This document shows positions 38,559-57,713 of a DNA stretch of 64,000 nt, in pieces. The number at the start of each line of letters is the position of its first letter. Position 1 is the stretch's first letter. The translations under genes and the position numbers were made by a program. The stretch comes from a bacterium (GTDB taxonomy: Bacteria > Patescibacteriota > Minisyncoccia > Phycocordibacterales > Phycocordibacteraceae), in contig JBBCGK010000001.1 of NCBI GenBank assembly GCA_037200965.1, forward strand, positions 433,992-497,991, given 5' to 3'. The notes beneath the pieces are model-generated. The model had not been told where the DNA came from. It did not search any database and saw only the letters and a program-made list of their open reading frames with translations.

Positions 38559-38594
38559 GTTGCACAACCTCCTTTTTACGAACGATCCTGCAGG
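38559..38594 (+). repeat. Array repeat R1
   Basis: Exact 36-mer, 16 bp from the annotated tatD start codon. Confidence 0.98.
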
Positions 38595-38603
38595 TTAAAA
38601 GCC

Positions 38604-38912
38604 GTGACTGATTTTCATCGAAAGCACGGCTACGACGTGGGGACCGGGAACATGGCGGTCATGTCGCTCAGAATTGGACTACTCATAGAAGAACTGGGTG
38701 AACTCCACGCCGTGGTTTCAAAGGGTGTTGGCGACATTTCAGAGGAACACGCAGACCTCTTGTATCTACTTCTTGGAAACTGCGTCACGCTTGGTATTGA
38801 TATAGAAACTGCTTTCTTTGCAAAACATGCCATTAACATGCGGAGGGAAGCCAAGGTAGTGAGGGGGAACCGCCGTGTATCGGATTGGTCCCATGAAAAA
38901 TCTCAGGAATGA
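38604..38912 (+). CDS. MazG-like all-alpha nucleoside triphosphate pyrophosphohydrolase (probably 5'-truncated at R1)
   Basis: LLIEELGELHAVV and EEHADLLYLLLGNCVTLGIDIE are the paired acidic helices of MazG/HisE-type NTP-PPases. The frame is open back through R1, and the only start available is a GTG 9 nt after the repeat. Confidence 0.7.
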   Translation: MTDFHRKHGYDVGTGNMAVMSLRIGLLIEELGELHAVVSKGVGDISEEHADLLYLLLGNCVTLGIDIETAFFAKHAINMRREAKVVRGNRRVSDWSHEKSQE

Positions 38913-39940
38913 AAGCTACAGTCATCATCGGTGCGCAGTATGGCAGCGAAGGAAAAGGTAAGATTGCAGCTTATCTTTCAGATGAGTTCGCTCGTGCAGT
39001 TCGAACTGGCGGGCCAAACTCGGGGCATACCGTCGAGCGCAATGGCACGTTCTATCAAGTTCGAGCGGTCCCTAGTGCCTTCGTGAACCAACAATGTCGC
39101 CTCGCGATTGGTGCCGGGGCCATAATAAACACTGCCGTACTATTAGGAGAATTAACGGCATGTGGTATTGTCGAGGGGCGTTTGATAGTTGACCCTCAGG
39201 CTGTCATAATTGATGAAGAATATCAAAATTCGGAACTAGATTTAATCAGTTCGATTTCGTCCACCGGACAAGGCGTTGGTGCAGCAATCGCAGCTAAGGT
39301 CTTACGTCGGAAAGTAACTCTCGCAAGAGACGTGCCCGAGTTGCGGCCACTGCTTGCCGATGTTGCTGGCACGATCAATTCCGAACTCCAACAAGGCCTA
39401 GCTGTAATGATTGAGGGGTCGCAAGGATTTTTCTTGAGTTTGCATCATGGTTACTATCCGTTTGTAACAGGCAGGGAAACGACCGCAAGTTCATTTTGCG
39501 CCGAAGTAGGAATCGGTCCCAAAGATGTGGGTCAAGTGATTGGAGTTCTCCGCACCCACCCGATTAGAGTTGGCGGCCCTTCGGGACCTCTTCAAGACGA
39601 AATCGATTGGCAGACCGTCACCGCCGAGTCGGGCTACCCAACACCGCTGTTAGAGATAACTACCGTTACCAAACGAATTCGACGCGTCGGGAGGTTCTCA
39701 ATGGCCGAAGCTAAACGATCTTTGATGATCAATTCGGCGACCCAAATTGCTTTAAACTTCGTCGACTACTTGGACCATGCAAACTTTGGACTTAGAAGCT
39801 ACACCGCACTGACTGCTTCAACAAAAAAATTCATCGACGCACTAGAGACACAAACGGGAGTTCCCGTTTCGCTGGTGGGCACGGGGCCCCGTAACAGCGA
39901 TATGATAGACTTACGACGCGAAAAGAACCTCCCCCATTAG
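38909..39940 (+). CDS. Short adenylosuccinate-synthetase-family enzyme (PurA/PurZ-like)
   Basis: P-loop GAQYGSEGKGKI (PurA has GDEGKGK), GPNSGHTV, STGQGVGAA, IEGSQGFFLSLHHGYYPFVT, TTVTKRIRRVG and GTGPRNSD all parallel PurA motifs. At 343 aa it is like the archaeal/phage short forms. Its start overlaps the MazG-like stop (ATGA). Confidence 0.8.
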   Translation: MKATVIIGAQYGSEGKGKIAAYLSDEFARAVRTGGPNSGHTVERNGTFYQVRAVPSAFVNQQCRLAIGAGAIINTAVLLGELTACGIVEGRLIVDPQAVIIDEEYQNSELDLISSISSTGQGVGAAIAAKVLRRKVTLARDVPELRPLLADVAGTINSELQQGLAVMIEGSQGFFLSLHHGYYPFVTGRETTASSFCAEVGIGPKDVGQVIGVLRTHPIRVGGPSGPLQDEIDWQTVTAESGYPTPLLEITTVTKRIRRVGRFSMAEAKRSLMINSATQIALNFVDYLDHANFGLRSYTALTASTKKFIDALETQTGVPVSLVGTGPRNSDMIDLRREKNLPH

Positions 39941-39948
39941 ATACCAGC

Positions 39949-40701
39949 ATGAAAAACCAATACTTTGGCGACTTGAGCGACTATAAGAAGTACGGTTTGC
40001 TGCGCACACTTTCGATTGAGGGTGAGTGCTCGCTCACTGTGTGTTGGATGCTGACGCGAGATGATCAAAGTACCGACGGGCGGCATACAACTTATTTGGC
40101 GGACGTAAGAGAATGGCGCAACCATGAGCCGTTGGTATTTGATCTACTCGCGGACGCAGTCTTCAAAAATTCCCGTAATCTCGAAATAGTTGAAAAGTCC
40201 GGACTAATACCGAACTCAAACTACTTTCGTGAGGAAATCGGCGATGCTCCCTCCCAACGGGAAGCTTTTTTTGCCCGATTGGCAGATGAAGCCCGCAATT
40301 CTGATATTGTGTTCTTGGACCCCGACAACGGCCTTGAAGTGAAGTCAGTCCCCTATGGCTCCAAGGGAGCACATAAGTACATTTATCGGTCTGAAATCGA
40401 AAAGTTATCTCGGAATGGACTTTCAATCTTGCTGTATCAACATTTTGGTCGGAAAGAACGGTCTGAGTTTATCCGAGCTATTGCATTGAAACTCATCGAT
40501 TGGCTGAATGTGGAGGAAGTATTTTCACTTCGGACGACGCATACCGTATTTTTTCTTGTGCCGAAAGCTGCCCACAGGTCGCGAATAGATCGATCCCTCC
40601 AGGCAGTAAATAGACAATGGGGAGATAAGATCTTTATCGAGATACACTCTAAGGAGTCTGTATCAACGGTTACAACGAAAAATCAGTTAGACCTACTCTA
40701 A
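39949..40701 (+). CDS. Hypothetical protein
   Basis: 250-aa ORF with N-terminal FGDLSDYKKYGLLR and central FLDPDNGLE. I do not recognise the family. Confidence 0.6.
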   Translation: MKNQYFGDLSDYKKYGLLRTLSIEGECSLTVCWMLTRDDQSTDGRHTTYLADVREWRNHEPLVFDLLADAVFKNSRNLEIVEKSGLIPNSNYFREEIGDAPSQREAFFARLADEARNSDIVFLDPDNGLEVKSVPYGSKGAHKYIYRSEIEKLSRNGLSILLYQHFGRKERSEFIRAIALKLIDWLNVEEVFSLRTTHTVFFLVPKAAHRSRIDRSLQAVNRQWGDKIFIEIHSKESVSTVTTKNQLDLL

Positions 40702-40714
40702 GTAAGTGAGCAAC

Positions 40715-40774
40715 ATGGATATTGGAAAGGAGCCTGACTTCGCCTCGGATGCCTACTTTGATAATCCGCAACAA
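40715..40774 (+). pseudogene. 5' fragment (20 codons) of an unknown gene, cut by R2
   Basis: ATG at 40715 opens MDIGKEPDFASDAYFDNPQQ, which runs straight into the repeat. Confidence 0.35.
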
Positions 40775-40810
40775 GTTGCACAACCTCCTTTTTACGAACG
40801 ATCCTGCAGG
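40775..40810 (+). repeat. Array repeat R2
   Basis: Exact 36-mer. Confidence 0.98.
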
Positions 40811-40812
40811 AC

Positions 40813-41427
40813 GATATCCACAAATCACTGCTGCGCAGCGCGGGCCTCGCGCATCTCTCGGCGGATGAGATTGGGGACTTGAGGGACTTGGCAGCGCATG
40901 AGCTACGGAATGAGACCGCGGACCGCGGTGGTCTCATGGCGGGATTGCGACTGCGCCTGCAACAATGCGACACACGGCTATCACGCCTTACAGACGCGCT
41001 CCTCGACCACCTCATCGAAAAGCAGGAATACGAAGCCAAGAAGGCCGCGCTCCTGGGCGAGCGGCGCGAACTGCTAGACAAACTGGAAAGCCCGGAGGCT
41101 TCGCGTCAACCCGCCGACGGCGTGCTGCAAGCATTGGAACTGCCAGATGTCGTGGAAACACGCTACGAAATGGCTTTGCCGGACCAACGGCGCCGCATTG
41201 CGTCTGCAATCGCTTGGAACCTAACTGGTAGCGGAAAAGAGGCCGTACCTGAGCTGAAATCTCCGTACCGGGAGATCGTACAGTGGCGTCTTTCCAATCC
41301 GGTGCGCCGTAACGGGGAGCGATCGGAACCTGACATAAAGCTGCTATACGAAGCGCTCAAAGAAGTCTGCCGGCGAGAAGACAAGCCGCCGCAACGTCCC
41401 CAACGTCCTGATGTCTCCGGCATATAA
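40813..41427 (+). pseudogene. Large serine recombinase, C-terminal fragment (5'-truncated at R2)
   Basis: The frame is open from the first base after R2. The coiled-coil segment LRLRLQQCDTRLSRLTDALLDHLIEKQEYEAKKAALLGERRELLDKLE is typical of the C-terminal domain of large serine recombinases. No catalytic N-terminal resolvase domain is present. Confidence 0.65.
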
Positions 41428-41494
41428 GGCGACATACTTTTTCGAGAATTGTCGCGCCTTATGCCGCGTGAATGTCAGGCAGATGCTGTTCTGC

Positions 41495-42724
41495 ATGGAT
41501 GCGAGCATCAGCTACTTCGCCCGCACCAACTTCCGCAACCGAAACCAGCTCTTCGGTGTGAGGCAAGCCGACCGTCTTTCGCACCTGTACGTCATCGGCA
41601 AGACTGGCACGGGCAAGTCCACCCTCCTTGAAACCCTCGCCCGGCAAGACCTTCGGGCCGGGCGCGGCTTCGCCCTCATAGACCCGCACGGCGATCTCGT
41701 GGAACGGATCGCGAGGGACGCGCCGGAAGCCGTCTATCTGAACGCCCCCGATCCCTCCCAGCCCTTCGGCTATAATCCGCTCCGGAGGGTCAGGGACGAC
41801 AAGATACCGCTTGCCGTCTCGGGCTTCCTCGAAACCCTCAAGAAGCTCTGGCCCGACGCGTGGGGCGTGCGCATGGAGCACGTCCTTAGGAATACGCTGT
41901 ATGCGCTATTCGAGCAGGAGGATGCGCGGCTTCCCGATATCCTCCGCCTCTATGCCGACGAGACATACCGGAAGGCGCTCGCCAAGGGGATTAGGAACGA
42001 TACCGTCCGCCGCTTCTGGCTCCATGAGTTCGAGCACTTCCACTTTCGCCAGAGGGCGGACGCCGTGGCTCCGATACAAAACAAGATCGGGGCGCTCCTT
42101 GCCGACCCCACGCTCTATCGCATCCTCGTCGAGCCAAAGGAGGATATCCGCTTCCGTGCCCTCATGGACGGCGGCGGGGTTCTTCTGGTCAATCTCTCGA
42201 AGGGCAAACTTGGCGAGGACAGCTCGCACATCCTCGGCGCGCTCATCGTCTCGACCCTGGGCCTTGCTGCCTTTAGTCGGGCCGACAGTCCCCCAACCTC
42301 CCGCCGCCCTTTCTTCGTCTATATCGACGAATTCCAGTCCTTCACGACCCTTATGCTCGCCGACATGATGTCGGAGCTGCGGAAGTACGGCGTGGGCCTT
42401 ACCTTGGCGCACCAATATATGCACCAGCTTGAACCCGAGATACGGCATGCGGTTCTGGGGAACGCTGGGACGCTCATATCATTCCGTGTTGGCCCCGAGG
42501 ATGCGTCAATCCTGGCGAAGGAGTTTCAGCCGACGTTTGACACACACGATCTCCTGAACCTGCCTAACCACCATATCTATCTGAAGCTGATGATTGATGG
42601 GGTGCCGGGCGGGGCGTTTAGTGCAAATACAGTCGATCATTCGACGCGGGGAGAGACAAAGCTCGCACCGCTACGAAGGACTTCAGACTTGAATGCGGGC
42701 GAAAGCGCGTCTGACTATGTGTGA
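41495..42724 (+). CDS. P-loop ATPase, type IV secretion coupling-protein-like (TraD/VirD4-type DNA-binding domain)
   Basis: Walker A VIGKTGTGKST, Walker B FFVYIDEFQSF and LAHQYMHQL. The start is taken at MDASISYF, because the track ORF start at 41411 overlaps the recombinase fragment. Confidence 0.7.
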   Translation: MDASISYFARTNFRNRNQLFGVRQADRLSHLYVIGKTGTGKSTLLETLARQDLRAGRGFALIDPHGDLVERIARDAPEAVYLNAPDPSQPFGYNPLRRVRDDKIPLAVSGFLETLKKLWPDAWGVRMEHVLRNTLYALFEQEDARLPDILRLYADETYRKALAKGIRNDTVRRFWLHEFEHFHFRQRADAVAPIQNKIGALLADPTLYRILVEPKEDIRFRALMDGGGVLLVNLSKGKLGEDSSHILGALIVSTLGLAAFSRADSPPTSRRPFFVYIDEFQSFTTLMLADMMSELRKYGVGLTLAHQYMHQLEPEIRHAVLGNAGTLISFRVGPEDASILAKEFQPTFDTHDLLNLPNHHIYLKLMIDGVPGGAFSANTVDHSTRGETKLAPLRRTSDLNAGESASDYV

Positions 42725-42859
42725 GCGGGATCACGTTTTTTTGCAGATGGCACGCCCGCGTGGGCTGTTTTGGTAATTGCCATAGCGTCTTGGCAACAAC
42801 TGGGCGTCAGTACCTGGCTTCCCTCACAGGTTGAATATATTACAGTATAGCTCAACCAT

Positions 42860-43864
42860 ATGTTGAGTCGCCGCATGCCCGGTATTACCGAATTACTTTT
42901 GAAAATCGCGCCCAAGATCGGCGCAAAAGTGCTGATCGAGCCTGAGTGGGGCTACGTCGGGCAAATCGCCTTCCGAAGCGGTCGCAAGCGGTACTTCCGG
43001 TTCTCCAGCGTTGACGTGAATACGCTGGGCGCATCGGAAGTCGCGAAGGACAAAGATTTTGCGAACTTCTTCATGAAGCACATGGGTTATCCCATCGTGA
43101 AAGGAAAAACGTTCTTCCGGGACGACTGGGCAGAGACAATCCGCTCCAAGCGAAAGATCACGGCCGCCTATCGATACGCGCGACGGCTGGGATTTCCGGT
43201 GATTGTGAAGCCTAACAGCGGCAGTCAGGGGAAAGCAGTATGCTTGGCTCGCACGAAGCGTCAATTCTATCGCGGAATGCGGGCGACCTTTGAGGTGGAC
43301 AAAGTCGCGCTTGTCCAAATACCTGTTTCAGGAAAAGACTACCGCATCGTGGTCTTGGACCGAGAAATCATTTCGGCGTACTACAGGGTTCCGCTAAGCG
43401 TCGTCGGCAATGGAAAAGCTTCCGTAGCGGCGTTGCTCAAGTCGAAGCAGAAAGAGTTTCGGCGCGCCGGGCGCGACACGGCGATCAGGGCCGACGATCC
43501 GCGCATAGCGGAAAAGCTCGAGCATCAGGGACTGAGCTTCGCTTCCGTTCTCCGAAAGGATCAAAAGGTTTTTCTTTTGGATAACGCCAACCTTTCGACG
43601 GGCGGCGAATCGGAAGACGTAACGGAAAGCGTGCACAAGGAGTTCAGGAAAATCGCGGTGTCGCTTACGAGGGATATGGGACTGCGCCTGTGCGGCGTCG
43701 ATCTCATGATAGACGGGGATATCTCGGAGCCGCCCAAAACGTATTGGGTGCTTGAAGTCAATTCGGCCCCGGGGCTCGATCATTATGCGAAAAGCGGCGC
43801 GGCACAAAACAAAATCGTCGAAAAGATGTATACGACGGTGCTTAAGAGCTTGGATCGTGACTAG
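42860..43864 (+). CDS. ATP-grasp enzyme (cyanophycin-synthetase / RimK-like ligase domain)
   Basis: FPVIVKPNSGSQGKAV, DYRIVVLD, ANLSTGGESEDVTESVH and VLEVNSAPGL match ATP-grasp ligase motifs. Confidence 0.7.
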   Translation: MLSRRMPGITELLLKIAPKIGAKVLIEPEWGYVGQIAFRSGRKRYFRFSSVDVNTLGASEVAKDKDFANFFMKHMGYPIVKGKTFFRDDWAETIRSKRKITAAYRYARRLGFPVIVKPNSGSQGKAVCLARTKRQFYRGMRATFEVDKVALVQIPVSGKDYRIVVLDREIISAYYRVPLSVVGNGKASVAALLKSKQKEFRRAGRDTAIRADDPRIAEKLEHQGLSFASVLRKDQKVFLLDNANLSTGGESEDVTESVHKEFRKIAVSLTRDMGLRLCGVDLMIDGDISEPPKTYWVLEVNSAPGLDHYAKSGAAQNKIVEKMYTTVLKSLDRD

Positions 43865-43956
43865 CTCGTGTATAGTCCATACGACCGATCTTCCTGACAC
43901 CAATAGGCATCGGCCAAATCGTGATTGCTGACCAACGTTTTGCGCCGAGCGACCGC

Positions 43957-44262
43957 CTAGTCGGGATCGTAGGGATTATTGGTATCCGTGCCATTGCGCG
44001 AGGAACCAGACGGCGAACTATACGGATCGACGCGCTTGTGACCTTGCTCGCCCGTATAGGGGTTCACGTTTGGATACGTCGAGTAATTGTTATAGGGATT
44101 GCTGTCAGGCGATGAGCGATGGTGTGGCGGAACATACGTGCCGTCCTTCCGCACATAGCCTCTGACACTGACGTCCTTCGCTGCCGCCTCAGCGCCAGTG
44201 GCCAGCAGGGTCGTGAAGACCAAAAGGGCGGCAAAAATCTTGCGCATATTAACTCCGATCAA
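43957..44262 (-). CDS. Small secreted Pro/Asn/Tyr-rich protein
   Basis: Signal peptide MRKIFAALLVFTTLLATGAEA followed by a low-complexity mature part. Confidence 0.5.
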   Translation of the reverse strand: MIGVNMRKIFAALLVFTTLLATGAEAAAKDVSVRGYVRKDGTYVPPHHRSSPDSNPYNNYSTYPNVNPYTGEQGHKRVDPYSSPSGSSRNGTDTNNPYDPD

Positions 44263-44357
44263 AAATGCGGCTCGATGCTAGTTTAGTGGCTGGCGCAGGG
44301 CCAGAGGAATAATCTTCGCAAGCGTGCGTCAGGCCACGCCCTACGGTAACGCGTCGA

Positions 44358-45341
44358 TCAGTTCGCCTCGTCGAAAATCCCATTCAGGATCGCCCCAAGC
44401 CGCACCCCTGCCGCCTGCAAGCGCTCTTCCACGATGGCGGCGCGGTCTTCCTTGTAGTTGCCGTCGGGCGCGAAGACGCGAACGGCGCCACCGGTATACG
44501 TCTCGCTGTCTTCGGAATAGCGGCAGGTGGTGCCGGAGAGCGTACAGTATCCGGTGTCGGGCGCGCGGGAGACGGTGAGCGATTCGTTGGCCCATACCAT
44601 CGGATCGAGCGACGCCTTCCACGTTGCCCGCTGCTCGTCCGTGATTTCCTTTTGAAGAACATTGCCAAACGCCTCGCGCCCAGGGCCTGCTGGCTTCGTC
44701 TGCGCGATGTGGAGATCACGCATGACTTGTTCGGGAATGCAGGTGTCCCACACGGTATGGAGCGCGGTTTTGCCGTCATAGGCGCAGCCCGAGACGCCCT
44801 TCACGCCGACGCTGTTGCCGCCGCGATCATCGGCATACGAAATGTGGAGCGGCTGGTGTATGTCGCCGAGCCAGTGCCCGAGGAATTTGAGGGCCGTGCG
44901 CTTCTTGTCGGTTGAGGCATTCGGGTCTTTGAGGATGGCGATATCGGCGGGGATGGCCGTGAAAAGGCACGTCGCCGCATTCACGCACTTGGCCTCGGGG
45001 AAGCTCGTCCAATCGCGCGGCATATTGATGAAGTGCTCCGCCCTCCGGCTGCTTTGCACATCGCCCTTCTCGTCCGGCCAGGTGCAGGCCCCGTGGAAGG
45101 TTCTCGGTATCTCCTTGCCGTCAGCGTCCTTAAGCGGGGTTTCTGAGCGGATAAGCTTGTTGACCGCCTTGCGGGCCGTCGGCGTGAGCTCCTTGTATGC
45201 GATCTCGCAGACCGCCTCGTGGCCGGTGCCGCCGAAGGCGAGGGCACCGCTCGTTGTGAGACAAAGACTGACGAAGCCACCAGCTCCAAACAGCGCAAGA
45301 AGAACCCGCCGACGTCCACCCATGTACCCGCTCCCCCTCAC
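44358..45341 (-). CDS. Secreted S1/P1-family zinc nuclease
   Basis: Signal-like N-terminus, FGGTGHEAVCEIA (WG..GH equivalent), HFINMP, and LKFLGHWLGDIHQPLH (the H..GD.HQPLH zinc motif). Confidence 0.8.
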   Translation of the reverse strand: MRGSGYMGGRRRVLLALFGAGGFVSLCLTTSGALAFGGTGHEAVCEIAYKELTPTARKAVNKLIRSETPLKDADGKEIPRTFHGACTWPDEKGDVQSSRRAEHFINMPRDWTSFPEAKCVNAATCLFTAIPADIAILKDPNASTDKKRTALKFLGHWLGDIHQPLHISYADDRGGNSVGVKGVSGCAYDGKTALHTVWDTCIPEQVMRDLHIAQTKPAGPGREAFGNVLQKEITDEQRATWKASLDPMVWANESLTVSRAPDTGYCTLSGTTCRYSEDSETYTGGAVRVFAPDGNYKEDRAAIVEERLQAAGVRLGAILNGIFDEAN

Positions 45342-45453
45342 TATTCGTGCCCAGGATGCGAGGACTCGCCCTAGCCGAAGAACGGATGATGCCCGGATGA
45401 TTTCACCCGTCCAAGAGGAATGTGCGCCTTAGACTTCGTATCGGGCCGGGCCT

Positions 45454-46359
45454 ATGCTGCTTCTATTGGTGGGGTGTTTCTCAGGGGGTATTGGCATGAC
45501 TAGCGGCACGCGAGTTTTTCCGACGCGTTCGTATCGGGCATCATTTCCCATTCATGCGCTTCTTGCCGTCTTCGCGCTTCTCGTCGCGGGTGCGTATGGC
45601 CCGGCCGGTTCGGCCTTGGCCGCGACCAGCGCGGCGTCCTTCTGCCTTGACGCATGCCCCGAGGGCGCGCCGGCAAAGAACAAGACGGTCGTGCACCATG
45701 TCTATGCGCTCAGCTCGAACCCCGACACGAAATTCGCCGATTGGGTCGCGTACAAGATCTCCAAAGCGACCATCGGGTCGAACTGTTCGCGCAAGTGGGC
45801 GAAGGACCCGGACCTAGCGGCCGGCACCACGCTCAAGCCCGCCGATTACAAGGACATCAGTGCGGCGCTCCAGTCCGACCGGGGCCATCAAGCGCCCTTG
45901 GCAAGCCTATGCGGCTCGAAGTTCAATGCCGAGGCGAACTATCTCTCGAACATCACCCCACAAAAGTCCGACCTCAATCAGGGCGCATGGGTGCGGCTCG
46001 AAACCGCCGAACGCAAGCTCATTACGGGCGGCACCGCGAAGACCGTGTATACCGTCACCGGGACGCTCTACGAAAAGAAGATGCCGCCGCTTCCCAAGGC
46101 GAGCGTCAAGCACAAAGTCCCTTCGGGCTATTGGAAGATCGTCGCCGTCGAGACGGACGACGGGATCGACGCCGTGGCGTTCGTCATGCCGCAGGATACA
46201 CCCAAAGCCGCCGATTATTGCGAAACGCGCACCACCATCGGCGACGTTGAGACGCGCTCGGGCCTCAAGTTCTTCCTCGATCTCAACGAGACCGACCGCA
46301 CGCAGCTTGAGGAGAGCGAGGCGAAGACCGGCCTCTATGAGGATTTGGGCTGCGAGTAG
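45454..46359 (+). CDS. Secreted DNA/RNA non-specific endonuclease (NucA/Serratia nuclease family)
   Basis: Signal/TM segment, the catalytic SDRGHQAPLASL (DRGH motif) and downstream NITPQKSDLNQGAW. Confidence 0.8.
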   Translation: MLLLLVGCFSGGIGMTSGTRVFPTRSYRASFPIHALLAVFALLVAGAYGPAGSALAATSAASFCLDACPEGAPAKNKTVVHHVYALSSNPDTKFADWVAYKISKATIGSNCSRKWAKDPDLAAGTTLKPADYKDISAALQSDRGHQAPLASLCGSKFNAEANYLSNITPQKSDLNQGAWVRLETAERKLITGGTAKTVYTVTGTLYEKKMPPLPKASVKHKVPSGYWKIVAVETDDGIDAVAFVMPQDTPKAADYCETRTTIGDVETRSGLKFFLDLNETDRTQLEESEAKTGLYEDLGCE

Positions 46360-46381
46360 CACGAGCGCGGGAAGATACGGC

Positions 46382-46669
46382 ATGCGCAAGGCATTCATAC
46401 TGACGCTGGTGGCGTTCTCCGCACTTGCGGCAACCCCACTCATCGCGCGGACCACGGATGCGGAAGTCCGGGGACAAATGATCCGCGAGTCCATCGCAAG
46501 CTATCCCGGCAACTGCCCGTGTCCGTACAGCACGATGCGAAACGGGCGCTCCTGCGGCGGGCGAAGCGCGTACAGTCGGCCCGGCGGATATGCTCCGCTG
46601 TGCTACCCGTCTGACGTTTCGGACGATATGGTGCGCGGCTATCGAAGCACGCATGGGCTCGGGAACTGA
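46382..46669 (+). CDS. Small secreted Cys-rich protein
   Basis: MRKAFILTLVAFSALAATPLIA signal followed by a Cys-rich mature region. It uses an internal start within the longer, implausible track ORF 45860-46669. Confidence 0.5.
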   Translation: MRKAFILTLVAFSALAATPLIARTTDAEVRGQMIRESIASYPGNCPCPYSTMRNGRSCGGRSAYSRPGGYAPLCYPSDVSDDMVRGYRSTHGLGN

Positions 46670-46865
46670 TCGATCCGATTGATATCTGGCGAAGCGCGCA
46701 AACGCTCATCTCGCTCTATGGCGATGAGGCGGAACAGTTCGCGCTTCGCCGCGCCGCTACCCTGCTCGGCGAAGGAGACCGGGAGGGCCATGCGGCAATG
46801 GCAAGCGTTGCGGAAGCGGTGAAGAAGCTGCGGCAGGAGCGGCCCGAAAGCGGCGATGCCGTCCA

Positions 46866-47339: not shown

Positions 47340-47349
47340 TCTCAGCCTG

Positions 47350-48393: not shown

Positions 48394-48434
48394 AAAAATG
48401 CATAAGGCGCCAGGCGGCGCCGTGGAGTAATTCC

Positions 48435-49601: not shown

Positions 49602-49603
49602 GA

Positions 49604-49840
49604 GTGCTCGACATGGCCGGAACGCTCGATTGCTTTGTCCGCCTTGTTGAACTCGACACCTGCGTGCGTGAGTTGGCACAGCGCAAGCGCGCGAATAATA
49701 GGATCAGCATATCCGATCTTGATGACGTTCTCCTGGCGCTTGCTGAAGCTCGGGAAACGATCCAGGACGACGCGTATGACGAGATGGCGAGGCGGCGAGC
49801 GATAACAACGGCGGACATAATGCAGTTCGCAAAAGATTAG
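49604..49840 (+). CDS. Hypothetical small protein
   Basis: 78-aa ORF starting 2 nt after the GNAT stop. No motif recognised. Confidence 0.35.
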   Translation: MLDMAGTLDCFVRLVELDTCVRELAQRKRANNRISISDLDDVLLALAEARETIQDDAYDEMARRRAITTADIMQFAKD

Positions 49841-50107
49841 CGAAAGCGCGCGGCTCTATTCAAAACGCGGCCTACGACAAGTTCGCAACTATTCGTCCGA
49901 CAACACTCGCCCGATAACGGATCATTCGGCAACCAGAGGATAATGAGTATATCGCGGGAGCGAAGCATAGGAGACGATGCAGTGCATAGTCCGTCATAAA
50001 TTCAACGGCGGCATCCTGATGGTAGCTGTATAACAGCGTGGTGCCGGAACTTCCCCTTGTAGCCAATACCGGGCTTCGTTACAAAGCTTCAAGGGGAGGC
50101 TATATGC

Positions 50108-51743
50108 ATGCTTAATCACACCTTTGGAGTGATCTCGCTGGGTCGTTTCCTCACTGCTATACGTCCTGCGCGTTATGCGGTCCGCTCTGCCAATCGAACA
50201 CGCTTCGGCCAAGGGCTGGTCTCGGTCCGCACCCTAGTCGTCGCTGCGTGCGTTGCAATGAGTTGGCTAGCCGCATTGCCGCAAGCCGCCATCGCGAGCA
50301 GCGTCTTGATGAGCGTGCCAGGCGAAAGCGACGTAAACTCGGCGGGTGCCTTCACATATTCACTTCCTATTGCAGTTCCGCCCGGGACTGCCCGCATCGT
50401 ACCGCGACTGTCGCTTGATTATTCCAGTCAAAGCGGCAATGGCCTCCAAGGCCTCGGCTGGTCGCTTTCCGGATTGCCGGCAATAGGAAGATGCGCGCGC
50501 ACGGTGGCGCAAGACGGCGTGCATGGCAGTGTCAATTACGACGGCAGCGACAAATTCTGCTTGGAAGGCCAGCGCCTAGTCGCCCTAAGCGGCGTCTATG
50601 GCGCGAACAATACGGAATATCGTACCGAAATAGAGAGTTTCACCAAAATTATTTCATACGGAACGGCGGGTAACGGGCCAGCCTCGTTCAAAGCGTGGAC
50701 CAAGTCCGGTCAAATCCTGGAATTCGGAAACACGGCGGATTCCCGTATCGAAGCGGTCGGCAAGACAACGGTGCGCGCGTGGGCCGTCAATAAGGTTTCC
50801 GATGCCAAAGGAAACTACGTCACGGTCGAATACACCGACGACCAAACTAACGGAGAGGCGTATCCGGTTCGGATTGATTATACCGGCAATCCCAACGCAA
50901 CGCCGGTGGTTATGCCGTACAATTCCGTGCAGTTCACATACACAACGCGCGCAGATATCACGATTGCCTATCAGGCCGGTTCGCAGCAGAAGATCACAAA
51001 ACTTCTCACCAATATTAAGACTTATCAAGCCGCGAATTTGGTTTCCGACTATCGCCTTGCCTATCAAGCCGGCTCATCGCTCGCACATTCGCGTCTAACG
51101 TCCATCACGTTATGTGATGGGTCGGGTACGCCGGTATGCCTTGCCCCCACGACCTTTGGCTGGCAGGGTGGCAGCGGTAGCCTGCCGACAATGACCGGGA
51201 CCGCATCCACTATCATTCCGACGCAAAGCGGTGATTTCAACGTTGACGGATTAACAGACCCCTTTGTCAAAGCCCCGTATTTTGGAACTCAGAGCGGAAC
51301 GTTCGTCGCGAGCGGCATGACTATAAGCTATACCGACCCCATATCGGGATTGCCGTGGTCGGGTCTAACGGCTTTCCCCAACACAATGGTCGGGTTTGTA
51401 TTGGGTGATACCGACGGAGACGGGTATAGCGACGTCACCGCGATGCGGGGTATCGCACATGGCGCTTATGCCAGGTTGGTGGTTACGCGCAACGACCAGC
51501 TCGGAAATCTTGGTCAGATCGGCCTGATCGATCCGCTGCATGCTGGCGCCATATTCAGCGGCGACTTCAATGGAGACGCGCGCACGGACGTTTTCGTGAC
51601 GGGTGTAGCTTCTTATAACAGTACGACGTATCTGAGCCTGGGGACCGGATCGTTCACCGCCATCAACATGAGTTCGGTATATGAACCCATCACGACCGCC
51701 GATTTTGATGGTGACGGATGCACCGATTTCTTGGGATCGACTA
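50108..51743 (+). pseudogene. SpvB/TcdB-type toxin-complex protein, N-terminal part with FG-GAP/VCBS repeats (3'-truncated at R3)
   Basis: AGAFTYSLPIAVPPGTARIVPRLSLDYSSQSGNGLQGLGWSLSGLPAIGRC is the SpvB N-terminal signature. Later GDFNVDGLTD, GDTDGDGYSD, GDFNGDARTD and ADFDGDGCTDF are FG-GAP/VCBS repeats. The protein sense ends at the repeat, and the track ORF beyond 51743 is read-through into unrelated DNA. Confidence 0.75.
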
Positions 51744-51779
51744 GTTGCACAACCTCCTTTTTACGAACGATCCTGCAGG
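51744..51779 (+). repeat. Array repeat R3
   Basis: Exact 36-mer. Confidence 0.98.
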
Positions 51780-51793
51780 TTTCCGTTAATCTT

Positions 51794-53134
51794 CTAAGTC
51801 TCTTGTTGAGACGCAACACAGCCCCACGCCGCTTTTACCGAGTCATAGATAAAGCCTACCGTCAGAACCTTGGATATAACCGTCGTGGTTGGCAACGCCG
51901 TGCCTTCTGCCACGAACGACGCCCCCCAGGTAATCGCCCGGGCCGTACCGTCGTCTTTGATCCTGAAGATGAGCGTCTGGAAGTTCGTGGGTGTACCGGA
52001 GAGATTTGTCGTCATCGACGTGATCGCGGTCGCAAGAGCAGTAATCGTCACGGCGTCGCACCCATCGCTATTCACTGTAGGGGTTGCCGAAGAAACAATC
52101 GTCGTTATGCGTGGAGTATTTCTCTTATTTGCAAGAGTCTGTGTACCATTGTTAGTCACGACACTGTCAGCGTTTGTGCCTGCAACCGAGATTCTCAAAT
52201 CTCCTGTTCCAACGGTAAGCACTCCTGAGGTGTGCGTTGCAACCCAGTTACCGTTACTAATGTTCCAGGTAAAACCAGTAGCACTAAAGAGATCGGCCCA
52301 TCCAAGCGCGGTCGTCCCAAGAGCGGCAATATCATTCGTGACCGGGGAAAGAGCGGAGGAGGTAAGTTGTATCGTTCCTGTTCCGTTGATAGCCAGACCA
52401 AGCGTATTGGTTGTAGGAAGGTAGAGGCGATTACCGGTAGCAGTTGAAGAGGTAGGAGCAAAGCCAGCCGCAGTTGCCAGCGATGCCAACGTCAAAGCTC
52501 CGGCGTCGGTCAAGGTTGCATTGGTGGATGTTGCTTGTGCGCCGCGCGAAGTACCATCGGACCGAAGTATAGATTCATCTGTGGCAAAAGTGGCGGCAGC
52601 GGTGACTACATTACTCGGTATATCGCTTGTAAGAGCGACGGTACCCGTGGACGCCGGAAGGGTAATGGTGTTAGTTCCAGCGATTGCCGTAGGGACGAGG
52701 GCGATGGTACCGGAAGTTGAACCCGAGAAGGTTACACCCTGGGTACCGGAAATGATGCCAGTGGTGTCAGCAATAAGCACTGCCGAGTTCTGGATCAGCT
52801 TACCAGTGGTAGTGTCGAAGCGGGCCACGGCGTTATCAGTTGCTGAAGCCGGGCCTACAACATAGGTAGCAAGGGAAGCAGTCGTAGGAATAACATAGCC
52901 GCTTTGGAGCGCTATAGCGATCGTTCCGGAAGTAGTGATCGGTACGCCGGATACCGTAAGTCCTGTCGGTACCGTAGCGTCAACGGATGTAACCGTACCT
53001 CCTCCTCCGGGGAGGTCTATAAGAAGCCTGTGCGTCGTCGGGTCTGCATATAGACGCACAGGCGTCTTGCCGTCAGCGCTTGAAGCTGCTATCAGCGTTG
53101 GAACATCGTTCTGGTCTCGGTAAGCATCAGCCAT
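51794..53134 (-). CDS. Phage tail-fibre-like protein
   Basis: 446 aa, Thr/Gly/Ala/Ser-rich beta-repeat sequence with AVARFDTTTGKLIQNSAVLIAD and similar segments typical of phage fibres. Its stop is 14 nt from R3. Confidence 0.6.
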   Translation of the reverse strand: MADAYRDQNDVPTLIAASSADGKTPVRLYADPTTHRLLIDLPGGGGTVTSVDATVPTGLTVSGVPITTSGTIAIALQSGYVIPTTASLATYVVGPASATDNAVARFDTTTGKLIQNSAVLIADTTGIISGTQGVTFSGSTSGTIALVPTAIAGTNTITLPASTGTVALTSDIPSNVVTAAATFATDESILRSDGTSRGAQATSTNATLTDAGALTLASLATAAGFAPTSSTATGNRLYLPTTNTLGLAINGTGTIQLTSSALSPVTNDIAALGTTALGWADLFSATGFTWNISNGNWVATHTSGVLTVGTGDLRISVAGTNADSVVTNNGTQTLANKRNTPRITTIVSSATPTVNSDGCDAVTITALATAITSMTTNLSGTPTNFQTLIFRIKDDGTARAITWGASFVAEGTALPTTTVISKVLTVGFIYDSVKAAWGCVASQQET

Positions 53135-53136
53135 AA

Positions 53137-53327
53137 TCAGGTACTTTGTACGAGTAATTCCCCGGCACTATTGGCGTAGAGCACCACAGGCGTCTTGCCG
53201 TCAGCGCTTGAGACAGCCATGAGTGCAGGAACAAAGTTTGCGTCCCGCAGATCGTCTACCGGCCCAAAGTCCGACCCGGTAGTGTCGTCGTCCGCCATAA
53301 GCGCATGTGTTGAAGGGTCAGCAACGA
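53137..53327 (-). pseudogene. 3' fragment of a second tail-fibre-related gene (5'-truncated at R4)
   Basis: ...ADPSTHALMADDD...LMAVSSADGKTPVVLYANSAGELLV parallels the N-terminus of the downstream fibre protein (LIAASSADGKTPVRLYADPTTHRLL). The frame is open into R4, and the apparent GTG start lies inside the repeat. Confidence 0.55.
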
Positions 53328-53363
53328 GTTGCACAACCTCCTTTTTACGAACGATCCTGCAGG
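53328..53363 (+). repeat. Array repeat R4
   Basis: Exact 36-mer. Confidence 0.98.
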
Positions 53364-53460
53364 AGTATGAGTACTGATACCGTCCAATCTGCCATTGAAT
53401 ATGCGCGACACTCGCCGTCGTGACGACGTTGAGTTAAGTCAATGGCGATTTATGTTACTG

Positions 53461-53982
53461 TCACCGGACCGGCACGAACCCTTCGGGAAGAAACTGCGTC
53501 GGGTCCTTCCACGGTTCAATAGCAACTGCTTTGGGGTATTTGCTTATCATGTAAGCATCGGTGCAATACACCAAACTTTCGGGATCATCGTCCGAAGGCT
53601 CAAGGCCTGAAAATTCAACCATCACAGATTTCTGGTTGGTAATTTTTCCAAAGGTGTCAATGAACCGCTTGATTTTGTCAAACTCACGCACAAAATCGTC
53701 GGGCTCAAATAGATAGGAATACACTACTACTGTATTCTCGCCGACGATCCGTTCGGAACCGTCCTCATTTTTCACGCGGAAACGCCCAGCGGCGAGCGGC
53801 AATTGGGTTACACCGCCATTGATCCGCACCATAATTTCCATGGCGCTATCGACCCATTTGTCAAAATTTTCAACAGGCTTCTGATCGCGATCTTGGTTAG
53901 GCAAATAAACTGCAAACCGTTGTACCGATTCAGATGTATCGGCACCTAGCGCGGTCTTGAGGTCAAAATCTACGAGCGCCAT
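53461..53982 (-). CDS. Hypothetical protein
   Basis: 173-aa ORF with normal composition. No motif recognised. Confidence 0.5.
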   Translation of the reverse strand: MALVDFDLKTALGADTSESVQRFAVYLPNQDRDQKPVENFDKWVDSAMEIMVRINGGVTQLPLAAGRFRVKNEDGSERIVGENTVVVYSYLFEPDDFVREFDKIKRFIDTFGKITNQKSVMVEFSGLEPSDDDPESLVYCTDAYMISKYPKAVAIEPWKDPTQFLPEGFVPVR

Positions 53983-54068
53983 GATCGCTTCCTATTAGCC
54001 ATCAATGAAAAGGCCCCATAGCCGGGGCCTTAAAGTAGGCAAAATGCCAAATTGCAACGCTGATGCCG

Positions 54069-54738
54069 CTACCGCGGTCTTGAAGGTCTCCGAATTCCGA
54101 GCACCGTTTTAGGGTCCCGCTTGATCTTTAGAAACCGTCCAAATCCCGAACGAGCGTCTTCAGGTTTCTCCGCTTGTTGGGAAGCTGAACGAATCGCTGT
54201 CACTATCTCGTTAGCAGCTTCTGATATGGGCGGCAAATTTTGCCGGTTATAGTCGCCTGGCGGGATTCCCGCGTGCTTCTTTTTCATATGATTTTCTCCT
54301 GTTTCTTCACAGGGTTGCGACCCATCGGTCTCAGCCCCGTGTTGATCGGGAGAAAGCCCTTCAAGAATCGGGCCGCGTACGTCGGTTTCCCAGGTTAAGG
54401 CTTCGACGCGAATATCCTGGCCACGGTCCGTCCTTATGCTTTCGCGATGGGGACCATACCCACATAGTACCACAGCGGCATGCGTAGTCGCGCCCGAAAT
54501 CTCGTGGACTATATCCGCAGCAGCGCCAATACCAGCGCCCGTTACTATCAAGTCATAGACCATCAAGATGCGATCACCGGAAAGCGGTTTGTCTGCCGTT
54601 ATTGCTACGCCCTTCGCCCAACGCGTCTCGCGATAGATGCAGGCGGGCAATCCGGTTTCGGCGACGAGGGACGAGAGCATCGAAATCGCGCCGACCGGCC
54701 CCATCTCTTTTTCGATAAAGCACAATCGCGTAATGCCG
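54069..54738 (-). pseudogene. Phosphoribosyltransferase-domain protein (probably 5'-truncated at R5)
   Basis: GDRILMVYDLIVTGAGIGAAA is the PRPP-binding loop of type I PRTases. The frame is open back into R5, with only a TTG start at 54725. The usual 40 or so N-terminal residues of the PRT fold appear to be missing. Confidence 0.55.
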
Positions 54739-54774
54739 GTTGCACAACCTCCTTTTTACGAACGATCCTGCAGG
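54739..54774 (+). repeat. Array repeat R5
   Basis: Exact 36-mer. Confidence 0.98.
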
Positions 54775-55372
54775 AAACCATGAGAGAACCCGAGTTGATC
54801 TCGGTGGCCACGATCTTCAAAGGCGACAACTCGTTAAATTCCTCATAGTTCAGGTCAGCGAACCGAATTCGATCAGGCACTCCATCGTGATCACGACCAT
54901 TTGCGGCATATAATTCCCGCATACGTTCTCGAAGAACTGTGTTGATGAATTCACGAATGGGCGTTGTGGTGAAAAAGCCTAAGTGCCGCCATATGCGCAG
55001 CATTCCAAACGTAACTAGGGGAGCTGTTAAAAAAGACAATAATACACCCCCCAACGCCGTAGCGGACAATGCCCATCGAAGTCCCTGGCGGAGGCGAACA
55101 AATCTACGCCAATCATCAGCCCCCAATAACGTTACGGGGGTCAAGTTATGTAGGCTGAGAATATTTTGATCCCTAATGTCGGGATTCATCAAAGTCGAAG
55201 CACTGTATCCCGCCGCGACTAGCGTTGCCACGATCGCGCCAGCTGACGCCCCGGCTACACCTACGAAGGCGAGCCCATTCTTCGCGGCACCCTCCAAAGC
55301 ACCAATATGCGCTATGCCCTTAGCACCGCCACCTTCGAATATGCCAAAGGCTGGCCTCTTAGCGTCCATCAC
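54775..55372 (-). pseudogene. Patatin-like phospholipase, N-terminal part (3'-truncated at R5)
   Basis: FEGGGAKGIAHIGAL (oxyanion GGGxxG) and GASAGAIVA (GxSxG nucleophile). The catalytic Asp (DGG/DGA) region is absent because the sequence runs into R5. The track ORF 54605-55372 continues as unrelated read-through. Confidence 0.75.
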
Positions 55373-55505
55373 TGTATGTATCCTTTCGCAAATCAGGTCG
55401 GGGCCTGCACAAACGACAGAACATCGGACAGGCTGGTGAAATAATGAGATACCAGCCTTCGCACATTGCTGTTCCGCATACAGATACAGCAGTTGCTAGT
55501 TCAAA

Positions 55506-57077
55506 TCAGTTCAGTTGCTCCCGCACCAACGAAAGATCGTTGAACAACGTTCTCGTAAGATTCGGGATTTTTTCCAGTTTGTCTGCTTGTATTAACTTCG
55601 CCATAAAACGAATGCTTCCCTCCACTCGCTCGTCATAGAATATTTCGTGCAGAAACTTCCGCCCCTGCCGCAAATCCGTAGCATCAAACAGAAATTCCAG
55701 CTTGGCTTCGTTATCGACCATAGCAACTGCACGCCAAAAGAATCGAGGAAAATTCGCTGTCAGGAGGCTCTTGCGGACTATCTTGCTTAGGGAGGAGCGC
55801 GAAACAATCTCGCGTTTCAGATCGCTTGGGCCATTCAAAAATATGTCCCACTCGAAACGAGCCATATCACTATTGCTCGATAATTTTTTAAGCATCTCTA
55901 AAATATGATCAAATGCCAGGATAGCATCGTACACGTCGTCAAATCGGACGCGAATTTTGCTATAGAGCGGCACGAGACACAAATCCGCGCGAGCACGGGT
56001 TATCTTCGTCCCACGCTTTCGAGACCAAGTTGTCGTTATGATGTTAGATGGGCCGCTCAGCTTGATCTCAGAGTATGGGCCGATGCCGTCGTCATGCGCA
56101 TACAGTTTGGTTATGCGCGTCGCCCGTAGAAGAAAACCCGTGCGAGGTTCGGGTACTATGGGACCAGTTGTGGGCCCAAGGCCGCTGAGTGCGACCGCGT
56201 GAAATGCTCGTTTGCTTTTCTTGGAGCGTTCTAAGTTGAAGTCAAAACTCAGAATGATCGGAATATTGCCCCTCAAGAATGCATTTGCTGCGGCTTGGAT
56301 ATTGGCTCGCTCGGGCGTCATAAACAAATCCGCTTCGAGACCGACATTGCGCAAAACGCCAGCCATTTGATCGATATCCAAGCCGTCGTTCGGGAGAGCT
56401 AGGCCAGCTGTTGGCAGCGAAGCAAACGCTCGTTTGGTTATTTCAATAGGTGATAAGATTGGATTGTCATACAAATTCGCCGTGCCATGCAGTGTAGTCC
56501 ACAGAGCGCTGGTAGCGCATGCGCCAACCTCTCGGTCTTGTTCTTGAAAAGGCAGCGCACGTACAGGCAGATCTATGCCGAAAAGATTTGGTACATATCC
56601 GCGCTCAGTGAGGAAGCGACTCGATGGATTACTCCCAACCGGCGCCAAACACGTTCGCCCAATGATGGTTTCGGGAAGAGGTTTGACAACTACAAAGCCG
56701 TGATATCCCAAGACGTCGAACCTACACTCACCGCGGCCCGAAACGAAAAGCGCTTCGACCATATCTTTATCGAACGGTTGCCGAAAAAAGTGAATTCGTG
56801 AACATTCTTTCGGATAGTTCGCGTGGCATCTCGCGTAGTATCCTGTATGATCTTCGGCGAAATGCTTGTCGATGTAGTCGCGCTCAAATACAAGAGTTTC
56901 GATTTTCGCGGCTTCACAGTAACGAGCTAGAAAAATGACCTGGGGCTTTTGTGCAATTTGCTCCAGTCTAGGTTTAAATGCTCCGGCAACAAAAAGCGCT
57001 ACCAAGTTCTCTCGATTGTACTTGAGTACTTGGTAGCGCTCGCCCATGTGATCTAACTGAATATCCGCGTACGTCAC
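55506..57077 (-). CDS. Hypothetical protein with a putative papain-like cysteine peptidase core
   Basis: 523 aa. QEQDREVGACATSALWTTL (Gln...Cys), RAFHAVALSGL (His) and YAHDDGIG (Asp) occur in the order expected for a papain-fold / C39-like peptidase. The assignment is by motif pattern only. Confidence 0.5.
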   Translation of the reverse strand: MTYADIQLDHMGERYQVLKYNRENLVALFVAGAFKPRLEQIAQKPQVIFLARYCEAAKIETLVFERDYIDKHFAEDHTGYYARCHANYPKECSRIHFFRQPFDKDMVEALFVSGRGECRFDVLGYHGFVVVKPLPETIIGRTCLAPVGSNPSSRFLTERGYVPNLFGIDLPVRALPFQEQDREVGACATSALWTTLHGTANLYDNPILSPIEITKRAFASLPTAGLALPNDGLDIDQMAGVLRNVGLEADLFMTPERANIQAAANAFLRGNIPIILSFDFNLERSKKSKRAFHAVALSGLGPTTGPIVPEPRTGFLLRATRITKLYAHDDGIGPYSEIKLSGPSNIITTTWSRKRGTKITRARADLCLVPLYSKIRVRFDDVYDAILAFDHILEMLKKLSSNSDMARFEWDIFLNGPSDLKREIVSRSSLSKIVRKSLLTANFPRFFWRAVAMVDNEAKLEFLFDATDLRQGRKFLHEIFYDERVEGSIRFMAKLIQADKLEKIPNLTRTLFNDLSLVREQLN

Positions 57078-57538
57078 ACTGTGAACGGGATACGCCGACG
57101 GTCAGGAGAAATCTGGTTGGCTTGTTCTCGACTTTCAATTGCCTTGAGCATTGGCGAAAGACGCTTAGCGACTTGCGCAGTAAGATCAGTTCTGGAGGCC
57201 GTCGCCTTGGACTTGGGCCGTGCAGAACTCTTCGTCTTTTTGTGACGCATAGCGCAACCTCCAATTTCGGTGAGCAGGATGTTGCCCTCAGTTCCAGCCC
57301 GGCGGGTATAAACTCCAACACGGGGATCAAAATCAAGCTCATGGACTTGACTTCCTGGAACGGGGCCGCCTAGGGCTCCCCTGTAACGAATCAGCCCTGT
57401 TCTTAACGTACCACGAGCGCCTTCGTATCCCCAATATTTTGTATGTGGATAATCCACCAACACAAGTTCTTTGAATGGTGAGGCTGGCCGTTGCCTTTCC
57501 TCAGTGGCGTCGCCGTCCGTTGACCCAATCGCCTGCAT
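57074..57538 (-). CDS. Hypothetical protein (first gene of the S5 operon)
   Basis: 154-aa ORF overlapping the next gene's start by 4 nt. It has a basic C-terminal half and no recognised motif. Confidence 0.45.
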   Translation of the reverse strand: MQAIGSTDGDATEERQRPASPFKELVLVDYPHTKYWGYEGARGTLRTGLIRYRGALGGPVPGSQVHELDFDPRVGVYTRRAGTEGNILLTEIGGCAMRHKKTKSSARPKSKATASRTDLTAQVAKRLSPMLKAIESREQANQISPDRRRIPFTV

Positions 57539-57677
57539 AACAATTTAATGCCTTCCTTCTGGCAGCAGACCACTAGGAGCGGCAGACGGCCGTTCATTAT
57601 CAGCGTGGATCATTGGCTGGACCGAGCCCCAATCGGTGACTGATTCGTACGGCTAAAGACCGCTCGGGTCAACTAAG

Positions 57678-57713
57678 GTTGCACAACCTCCTTTTTACGA
57701 ACGATCCTGCAGG
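57678..57713 (+). repeat. Array repeat R6 (cas-proximal)
   Basis: Exact 36-mer, 32 bp from the cas2 stop codon (57746). Confidence 0.98.

Follow-up and report, generated by a model that had tools for sequence, protein, structure and literature searches.

Six identical CRISPR-like repeats beside cas1 and cas2 enclose kilobase-sized, gene-bearing inserts in a patescibacterial genome

Introduction

CRISPR arrays grow by an established Cas1-Cas2 chemistry, in which a staggered attack on both borders of a repeat is followed by gap filling that leaves a perfect duplicate. Casposons lack Cas2, encode a family B polymerase, are bounded by terminal inverted repeats and target-site duplications, and move themselves. 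Here we describe a locus in a 64,000-nucleotide stretch of DNA (the window) from a bacterium of the Patescibacteriota (Minisyncoccia; Phycocordibacterales; Phycocordibacteraceae; assembly GCA_037200965.1, contig JBBCGK010000001.1, positions 433,992 to 497,991 of the forward strand). Six identical 36-nt repeats beside cas1 and cas2 form a CRISPR-like array with kilobase "spacers". The best explanation is a minimal adaptation-type locus, in which only a short leader and a 36-nt repeat accompany cas1 and cas2, and which belongs to a clade found mainly in Patescibacteria (candidate phyla radiation, CPR). We put the probability that Cas1-Cas2 integrates long DNA fragments at this site at about 0.72, a figure that refers to the integration and not to any one biological role. 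Patescibacteria have been reported as almost devoid of CRISPR-Cas and dependent on other cells, and our literature search found no description of Cas1-Cas2 arrays with kilobase spacers.

The locus and its relatives resemble adaptation modules of the I-C, I-D and I-G-like kinds in their generic type of Cas1, their Cas2-fold protein and the order cas1-cas2-leader-array. The repeats are likewise direct, identical, 36-37 nt long and partly palindromic, ending in TTGTGCAAC, and the first insert of the window matches foreign DNA exactly between the repeat borders. Unlike the fixed 30-40 bp of those modules, the spacers here range from 140 bp to 10.9 kb and carry whole and truncated genes; no Cas4, effector or Cas6 lies nearby, no protospacer adjacent motif (PAM) signature is visible, and the leader, directly after cas2, is only ~20-35 bp long. 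Of the features that define CRISPR-Cas loci, the window contains Cas1, an adjacent Cas2 and identical direct repeats of 23-55 nt beside the cas genes and a leader. Foreign spacer origin was also found, exact for insert 1 and by relation to the same kind of element for insert 2. Short uniform spacers (about 26-72 bp) are missing, the inserts measuring 1375-10933 bp, as is an effector or interference module (Cas3/Cascade, Cas9, Cas10, Cas12 or Cas13) in the locus.

As in casposons, a Cas1-family integrase appears to move kilobase DNA, here judging from sequence, and the cas1-cas2-repeat unit occurs in several genomic contexts in some metagenome-assembled genomes (MAGs). In contrast to casposons, Cas2 is present, PolB and terminal inverted repeats are missing, and unrelated cargo gathers at one fixed repeat site. 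We rejected identity with a casposon on the presence of Cas2, the lack of a conserved polymerase nearby and the direct repeats without inverted copies. The likeness to integrons is a functional analogy only: a fixed platform beside an integrase gene gathers gene-sized units between repeated sites, and by this analogy new units may be added next to the integrase. Integrons use a tyrosine recombinase (IntI) rather than Cas1-Cas2, variable attC hairpins of 57-141 nt rather than identical 36-mers, and promoterless single-gene cassettes rather than arbitrary, gene-cutting fragments in either orientation. Identity with an integron was rejected as well, since no recombinase is conserved, the repeats are identical 36-mers and the units cut genes and have mixed orientation. 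The parts of the locus (Cas1, Cas2, leader, repeat) are known, whereas its product, gene-sized inserts of unmeasured length with no effector, is, to judge from our literature search, new. Array-based searches have probably missed such arrays because their spacers exceed CRISPR-defining lengths.

Results

Six exact repeats and five long intervals

The 36-nt repeat GTTGCACAACCTCCTTTTTACGAACGATCCTGCAGG occurs in six exact copies on the plus strand of the window, with no mismatch. The array is read on the minus strand, the direction of cas1 and cas2, on which the repeat reads CCTGCAGGATCGTTCGTAAAAAGGAGGTTGTGCAAC. The copies are R1, the farthest from cas2 (38559-38594), R2 (40775-40810), R3 (51744-51779), R4 (53328-53363), R5 (54739-54774) and R6, the nearest to cas2 (57678-57713). 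The chance expectation is 0, and no copy was found in shuffled sequence. When the six copies were aligned with 100-nt flanks, identity was confined to the 36 nt and the flanks were unalignable. All copies are direct, and the window holds no inverted ones. An earlier note on this DNA had described all six repeats, both terminal copies included, as 100% identical, with no degenerate leader-distal copy. This holds: R1 is exact, and a scan allowing up to 14 mismatches and half-repeat scans of both strands revealed no degenerate or partial copy in the 64 kb. The unusual feature, missing from that note, is the kilobase spacers carrying genes. From the cas-distal end, the intervals between repeats are 2180, 10933, 1548, 1375 and 2903 bp, and the array takes up 2% of the ~1-Mb genome.

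The recent, integration-driven origin that the earlier note proposed, with homogenisation as its alternative, is supported by the adjacent cas1-cas2 and by the insert farthest from cas2, which is still 100% identical to its source over 2180 bp. Inserts shared with related genomes but flanked by diverged repeats would have weakened this proposal; relatives with 84-85% identical Cas1 share no inserts with the window and differ in repeat variant. Because each integration would duplicate the repeat, identical repeats are expected and homogenisation need not be invoked. Identity within an array is also a family trait, a single variant copy having been found in one of 18 multi-repeat arrays (L008). 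The exact repeat had no match in 185,579 representative genomes. Exact-protein look-ups revealed no array variants, the order of inserts being identical in every assembly or read set that covers them.

The same note had ascribed little self-complementarity to the repeat. This is correct for the plus strand, which folds weakly (-1.5 kcal/mol), but not for the opposite strand, the one transcribed with cas1-cas2, on which a hairpin spans the whole 36 nt (-10.4 kcal/mol, z=-2.5; 5 of 200 shuffles were as stable). Across 42 family repeats, the mean folding energy was -9.8 kcal/mol, compared with -5.6 kcal/mol in shuffles, and the fold consists of a TGCA(CA)/(TG)TGCA outer stem and a variable inner stem. 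The reverse strand of the family repeats is about equally foldable. Covariation in the hairpin was not significant, with a paired fraction of 81.6% against a shuffle mean of 81.0%. At gathering score, Rfam matched only ribosomal RNAs (rRNAs) and a group I intron in the window, and nothing on the repeats. On these results, the dyad symmetry of the repeat is real, while an RNA function is an unproven possibility.

A generic Cas1, a divergent Cas2 and a short leader

The only cas genes in the 64-kb window are cas1 and cas2, both transcribed towards the repeats. cas1 (58039..59094, minus strand) encodes 351 amino acids matching Pfam Cas_Cas1 (PF01867; E=1.1e-63). The generic NCBIfam model TIGR00287 scored 221 bits, whereas every subtype model fell far under its cut-off, the closest being I-D, I-G and I-C. 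A profile of the family searched against solved structures gave 4n06 as the best match (E=2.8e-47); a casposase, 6opm, was also matched (E=3e-35). In the family alignment, the acidic and histidine residues E181, H241 and D253/E256 (window numbering) do not vary. On these profile matches, the identity of the protein as Cas1 is unambiguous.

Downstream lies cas2 (57746..58042, minus strand), encoding a divergent protein of 98 amino acids with no N-terminal Asp. Its sequence evidence is marginal: Pfam CRISPR_Cas2 matched at E=0.0034, below the cut-off, a profile search against the PDB returned Cas2 matches only (best E=0.015), and hhalign of the Cas2-like family against one canonical Cas2 was weak (E=0.09). 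The fold search was decisive. An AlphaFold model with a mean predicted local distance difference test (pLDDT) score of 74.9 shows beta-alpha-beta-beta-alpha-beta, a ferredoxin-like order of elements, and the top 18 Foldseek matches in the PDB were all Cas2 (TM scores 0.58-0.67). On the strength of the predicted fold, we regard the protein as a divergent Cas2. Its gene directly follows cas1 in 23 related loci. The family is small, with 68 clusters at 50% identity among 1.84 billion representatives, and has an invariant C-x2-C motif (C73, C76) and a nearly invariant third cysteine (C27). In the one weak hhalign comparison, Trp-x-Thr/Ser stands in place of the canonical N-terminal Tyr-Asp.

Between the cas2 stop codon and R6 are 32 bp (57714..57745, minus strand), which family conservation marks as a leader. 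The family leader comprises ~30 conserved nt with an A-rich tract at -18 to -23 and ends in GGCT, which in the window reads GACT; before the first repeat, G occupies -3 in 43 of 52 loci, C occupies -2 in 43 and T occupies -1 in 41. Internal repeats have no upstream base bias like that of the leader. The conserved stretch looks like what would be expected of a leader that steers integration to the first repeat.

The inserts are pieces of other DNA

Insert 1 (38595..40774, 2180 bp) is a copy of part of an element resembling an integrative and conjugative element (ICE). It matches positions 9687-11866 of a source locus (L001) at 100% identity, and the homology stops exactly at the repeat borders. 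The source lies on contig JBBCBH010010880.1, which is 4.0 Mb long and belongs to the same assembly, in a region with genes for a serine recombinase, a tyrosine integrase, TrwB-type coupling proteins and a relaxase. The left end of the insert falls inside the 297-aa AAA/PRA-PH gene of the source, leaving 102 aa in the window, and the right end falls just within a P450 gene, of which only the start is kept. The array copy is therefore the derived one, since genes that are present in the source are cut at its ends. The insert (38604-40701; L001 9111-11793) encodes a short, archaeal-type adenylosuccinate synthetase (PRK04293, 362 bits), which scored 219 bits with the PurZ model, under that model's cut-off. 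The synthetase adjoins a MazG/PRA-PH-like gene and a gene for a 250-aa protein, and the first gene of the source ICE is the 297-aa AAA-PRA-PH fusion. The three genes may constitute a nucleotide-modification or defence module.

Insert 2 (40811..51743, 10933 bp) is a fragment of a conjugative or integrative element, as judged by its similarity to the source locus of insert 1 and by Pfam, and is cut within genes at both ends. Its first open reading frame (ORF) corresponds to residues 337-514 of the 516-aa serine recombinase of that locus (60% identity), so that ~336 codons are lost. The second gene encodes a TraD/VirD4-like ATPase, whose best plasmid match is from Sulfitobacter (49%), and a region of the insert has 70% nucleotide identity with L001 1-1014. 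In the last ORF, a toxin gene with SpvB and FG-GAP domains, the Pfam matches end at aa 542 and R3 starts at aa 546.

Insert 3 (51780..53327, 1548 bp) carries a 446-aa ORF whose C-terminus matches phrog_3030. Within this ORF, a 74-nt direct repeat (53046-53119 and 53174-53247; 74% identical, 128 nt apart) is probably an internal repeat of the protein. Insert 4 (53364..54738, 1375 bp) contains ORFs of 173 and 218 aa. Insert 5 (54775..57677, 2903 bp) encodes proteins of 154 and 523 aa and carries a patatin gene, whose ORF (54605..55372, minus strand) runs through R5. Its Pfam match covers positions 2-118 of the 191-position model, and the gene appears to have lost its 3' end at R5. The 523-aa protein (55506-57538) belongs to a large hypothetical family of ~510-535 aa, with a best homologue of 49% identity; the family has no Pfam, PADLOC or PHROG match and is scattered over Pseudomonas, Phycisphaerae, Armatimonadota and other non-CPR bacteria. 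The gene of the 154-aa partner overlaps that of the 523-aa protein, and a family so unevenly distributed suggests that the two genes are a mobile or defence pair.

The G+C content of inserts 1, 3, 4 and 5 is 0.49-0.54 (0.506 in insert 5), compared with ~0.58 in the surroundings, and their tetranucleotide correlation with the host is 0.26-0.55. No insert matched plasmid or phage DNA by megablast, and tblastn of the 523-aa protein against phages gave no match. PADLOC and PHROGs, applied to the unknown insert genes, returned only phrog_3030, a mad8/HerA-like ATPase and a weak phospholipase match. Neither transposases nor terminal repeats of their own were found in the inserts. We regard the inserts as arbitrary pieces of DNA of foreign origin, at least two of which derive from conjugative or integrative elements.

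A family of arrays without short spacers

We analyzed the conservation of the locus through its Cas1. At E<=1e-20 there were 458 homologues, and the best 120 of the 458 are 50-100% identical to the window protein. From representative genomes and metagenomes, 86 loci around Cas1 relatives were drawn. Most come from Patescibacteria (Kaiser-, Adler-, Taylor- and Nomurabacteria, Paceibacterota), and some from MAGs that carry the label FCPU426, Verrucomicrobiota or "proteobacterium". A Kaiserbacteria MAG encodes the closest Cas1 (85%); the loci with the closest Cas1 have no flanking genes in common with the window. A search of IMG/VR viral contigs turned up no member of the Cas1 family.

In ~30 of 34 genome loci and in 36 of 50 metagenome contigs (~65 in total), cas2 is followed at a distance of 20-70 bp by a homologous repeat of 36-37 nt. 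It follows the pattern CCTGCA-N7-GTCGCAAAAAGGA-NN-TTGTGCAAC in 47 distinct variants, and the loci missed by this pattern have variant or degenerate copies. All arrays with a second repeat show long spacing: the 44 spacers of the family measure 140-10933 bp (median 1473), and none measures 25-60 bp. At an outgroup locus from Bacteroidales (Cas1 31% identical), the array is ordinary, with a period of 72-77 bp. ORF clustering of 35 loci identified Cas1 and Cas2 as the only conserved proteins, and no effector, Cas6 or third conserved gene was found across these ~35 related loci.

In the related arrays, ORFs span ~37 of 66 insert borders. Pfam identified genes truncated at borders, including a kinase without its N-lobe, an FAD monooxygenase cut at position 220 of the 349-position model and an MFS gene. 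The cargo, in both orientations, includes isochorismatase, SDR, polyprenyl synthase, DnaX and CDP-alcohol transferase genes, and an insert of L008 contains an integrase fragment. No clear PAM or end motif emerged from the ends of the 44 spacers or from the flanks of the single protospacer.

In one locus of a neighbouring clade (L076, Cas1 48% identical), repeated segments of ~94 nt (95% identical) and ~35 nt flank Cas1 (5597-5728, 7159-7362). This locus has no family-type repeat and may represent a different arrangement.

Proposed integration of long fragments and its rivals

We propose that Cas1-Cas2 would bind the ends of linear foreign DNA, incoming or scavenged, in either orientation and without a ruler for its length. 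Of the cas2-proximal repeat, both borders, the junction with the leader and the far one, would then be attacked by the two 3'-OH ends, and gap filling would duplicate the repeat. Each event would add one insert and one perfect repeat beside the leader. Such events would produce the six identical repeats, the exact junctions between inserts and repeats, and the genes cut at insert ends.

Several points weigh against this proposal. Known Cas1-Cas2 complexes measure prespacers with a fixed ruler, and here one complex would have to grip both ends of a kilobase fragment. That the Cas1-Cas2 of this clade accepts kilobase substrates is something we infer from sequences. The polarity of addition would follow from the leader only, and arrays sharing old inserts but differing in new ones were not found among the related loci. 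Because there is a single source-copy pair, no PAM or end rule can be derived. The gene of an effector could lie in another part of the 960-kb genome, the search having covered the window and ~35 related loci. Finally, the view that the 4.0-Mb contig comes from a different organism rests on its extent and gene content; composition is silent on this, since tetranucleotide frequencies of the 960-kb and 4.0-Mb contigs correlate at r=0.91-0.93 and do not separate them.

The alternative that survives best accepts the same integration but takes the array for an immune memory, whose long transcripts would silence invaders through a distant effector or host RNases. Two of the five inserts derive from conjugative or integrative elements, the repeat forms a hairpin on the cas strand, with the family-wide excess of folding energy over shuffles, and R1 is followed after 16 nt by the start of tatD-rpsF-ssb-rpsR, which run in the same direction, suggesting transcription through the end of the array. 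However, neither the window nor the ~35 related loci contain an effector or Cas6, the inserts of other arrays are mostly ordinary metabolic genes, the hairpin lacks significant covariation and known phages gave no match. With no effector accompanying the module, the array is probably not a classical immune locus guided by CRISPR RNA, and we consider the memory explanation unlikely.

An integron-like or attachment-site array, in which the repeat would be the site of a tyrosine or serine recombinase or of tandem genomic islands and cas1-cas2 would be incidental, is improbable. Gene-sized units do lie between identical direct repeats, and a serine recombinase fragment (insert 2) and an integrase fragment (L008) occur within inserts. 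These recombinase genes are truncated cargo, however, and no recombinase is conserved beside the arrays, only cas1 and cas2. The inserts, which cut genes at their ends and have mixed orientation, are unlike cassettes, and the repeat with its conserved leader follows cas2 in ~65 loci of many lineages. An attachment site of the transfer RNA (tRNA) type is unlikely, because the window has no tRNA or transfer-messenger RNA gene.

Even less probable is an ordinary CRISPR array that was disrupted by mobile elements or stripped of most repeats. Such an array would account for cas1-cas2 and for the CRISPR-like, partly palindromic repeat, but neither the five spacers here nor the 44 of the family include a short one, the minimum being 140 bp. 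Inserts and repeats adjoin directly, no leftover of a short spacer lying between them, and the inserts have neither a transposase nor terminal repeats of their own. We consider this explanation excluded, since short spacers are wholly absent and insert 1 matches its source unbroken from repeat to repeat.

Many contigs of public assemblies break at these repeats, but an assembly artefact, a repeat-induced chimera of unrelated contigs, has a negligible chance and is excluded by independent assemblies with the same repeat-insert order (GCA_037975565.1, GCA_015655515.1, GCA_015689235.1 and the unitigs of two Logan read sets) and by long-read MAG contigs of 0.1-0.9 Mb with the same architecture.

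Possible role and significance

If Cas1-Cas2 integrates long fragments, the role we rate as most likely, though only tentatively, is that foreign genes are captured into a safe site. A memory based on long transcripts and the absence of any selected role are both doubtful, and to the same degree. An expression platform of the integron kind is disfavoured by the mixed orientation and the truncated genes, and classical immunity by the lack of an effector and the metabolic cargo. A broader view is that a Cas1-Cas2 lineage widespread in Patescibacteria, free of the ruler and of any link to interference, serves as a homology-independent, site-specific platform for capturing kilobase-sized DNA of other organisms into the chromosome. 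We hold this to be quite possible, at somewhat less than even odds. If it is true, the platform, whose captures would include whole genes from the conjugative elements of hosts, would be a CRISPR-derived counterpart of integrons and a route of gene gain for minimal genomes.

There is a substantial chance that the locus represents a new function for a CRISPR integrase. Kilobase insertion, if true, would be a natural exception to the rule that CRISPR integrases measure their substrates, and would provide a natural enzyme for the homology-free, site-specific insertion of gene-sized DNA. It would also offer a concrete mechanism of horizontal gene gain in Patescibacteria, and would stand, as a living form, midway between CRISPR adaptation and DNA movers of the casposon kind. 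Because every base of insert 1 can be followed back to a 4-Mb genome of the same community, the relation of donor and recipient is open to direct testing.

Breakpoints and possible mobility of the module

In close relatives, the shared DNA runs exactly to the end of the first repeat and stops there. This abrupt end fits either different inserts at that position or a unit residing in different places. Several decayed loci break exactly at such junctions. In one related locus (L037), an insert (10003-11083) consists of cas1 from codon ~112 onwards, cas2 and the leader, ending at the leader-repeat junction, and the MAG has a second locus that matches this insert at 100% identity. In three others, L087 (~6093), L088 (~1503) and L077 (~2230), the resident cas1 stops at codon ~115 or ~250, where a repeat is joined to it. 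The breakpoints at leader-repeat or repeat borders (L037, L077 and L087) are consistent with nicking at these positions. The cas1 pieces joined to repeats could have arisen by self-capture or by deletions from the leader-repeat junction.

A unit of ~1.5 kb is found in L023, L024, L026, L033 and L034 (~9898-11402). It begins at a hairpin, TGTCCACGACGGGGACCCTTCGTG, which is located ~100 bp upstream of cas1, and ends with the final base of the first repeat. Copies of this cas1-cas2-repeat unit are 98-99.8% identical across unrelated contexts, and the MAG CAVYRH01 has four, one of them truncated. By eye, no target duplication was seen around the unit. The cas1-cas2-repeat unit itself may be mobile.

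Genomic surroundings

When 50-59.5 kb was scanned for promoters and terminators, fewer sites turned up than in shuffles. At the far end of the array, R1 lies 16 nt (38543-38558) upstream of the start codon of tatD, which is followed by rpsF, ssb and rpsR in the same direction (36500-38542). A promoter would not fit between the array and tatD, so the operon may be entered by transcription from the array. The 960-kb contig as a whole contains recA, ftsK and genes for ribosomal proteins and tRNA synthetases. Taken with the rRNA genes described below and the closest Cas1 in Kaiserbacteria, this indicates a bacterium of the Patescibacteria type whose genome is ~1 Mb.

The rRNA genes lie at 1-2093, 14762-14869 and 15891-20235, with a gap of ~14 kb between 16S and 23S and a separate 5S. 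The 16S gene is split by an insertion of ~730 bp that encodes a LAGLIDADG_2 endonuclease (740-1483, minus strand), and the 4.3-kb 23S gene contains a group I intron (16313-16529) and a LAGLIDADG_1 ORF (17187-17726, minus strand). Split, intron-bearing and unlinked rRNA genes are typical traits of CPR bacteria.

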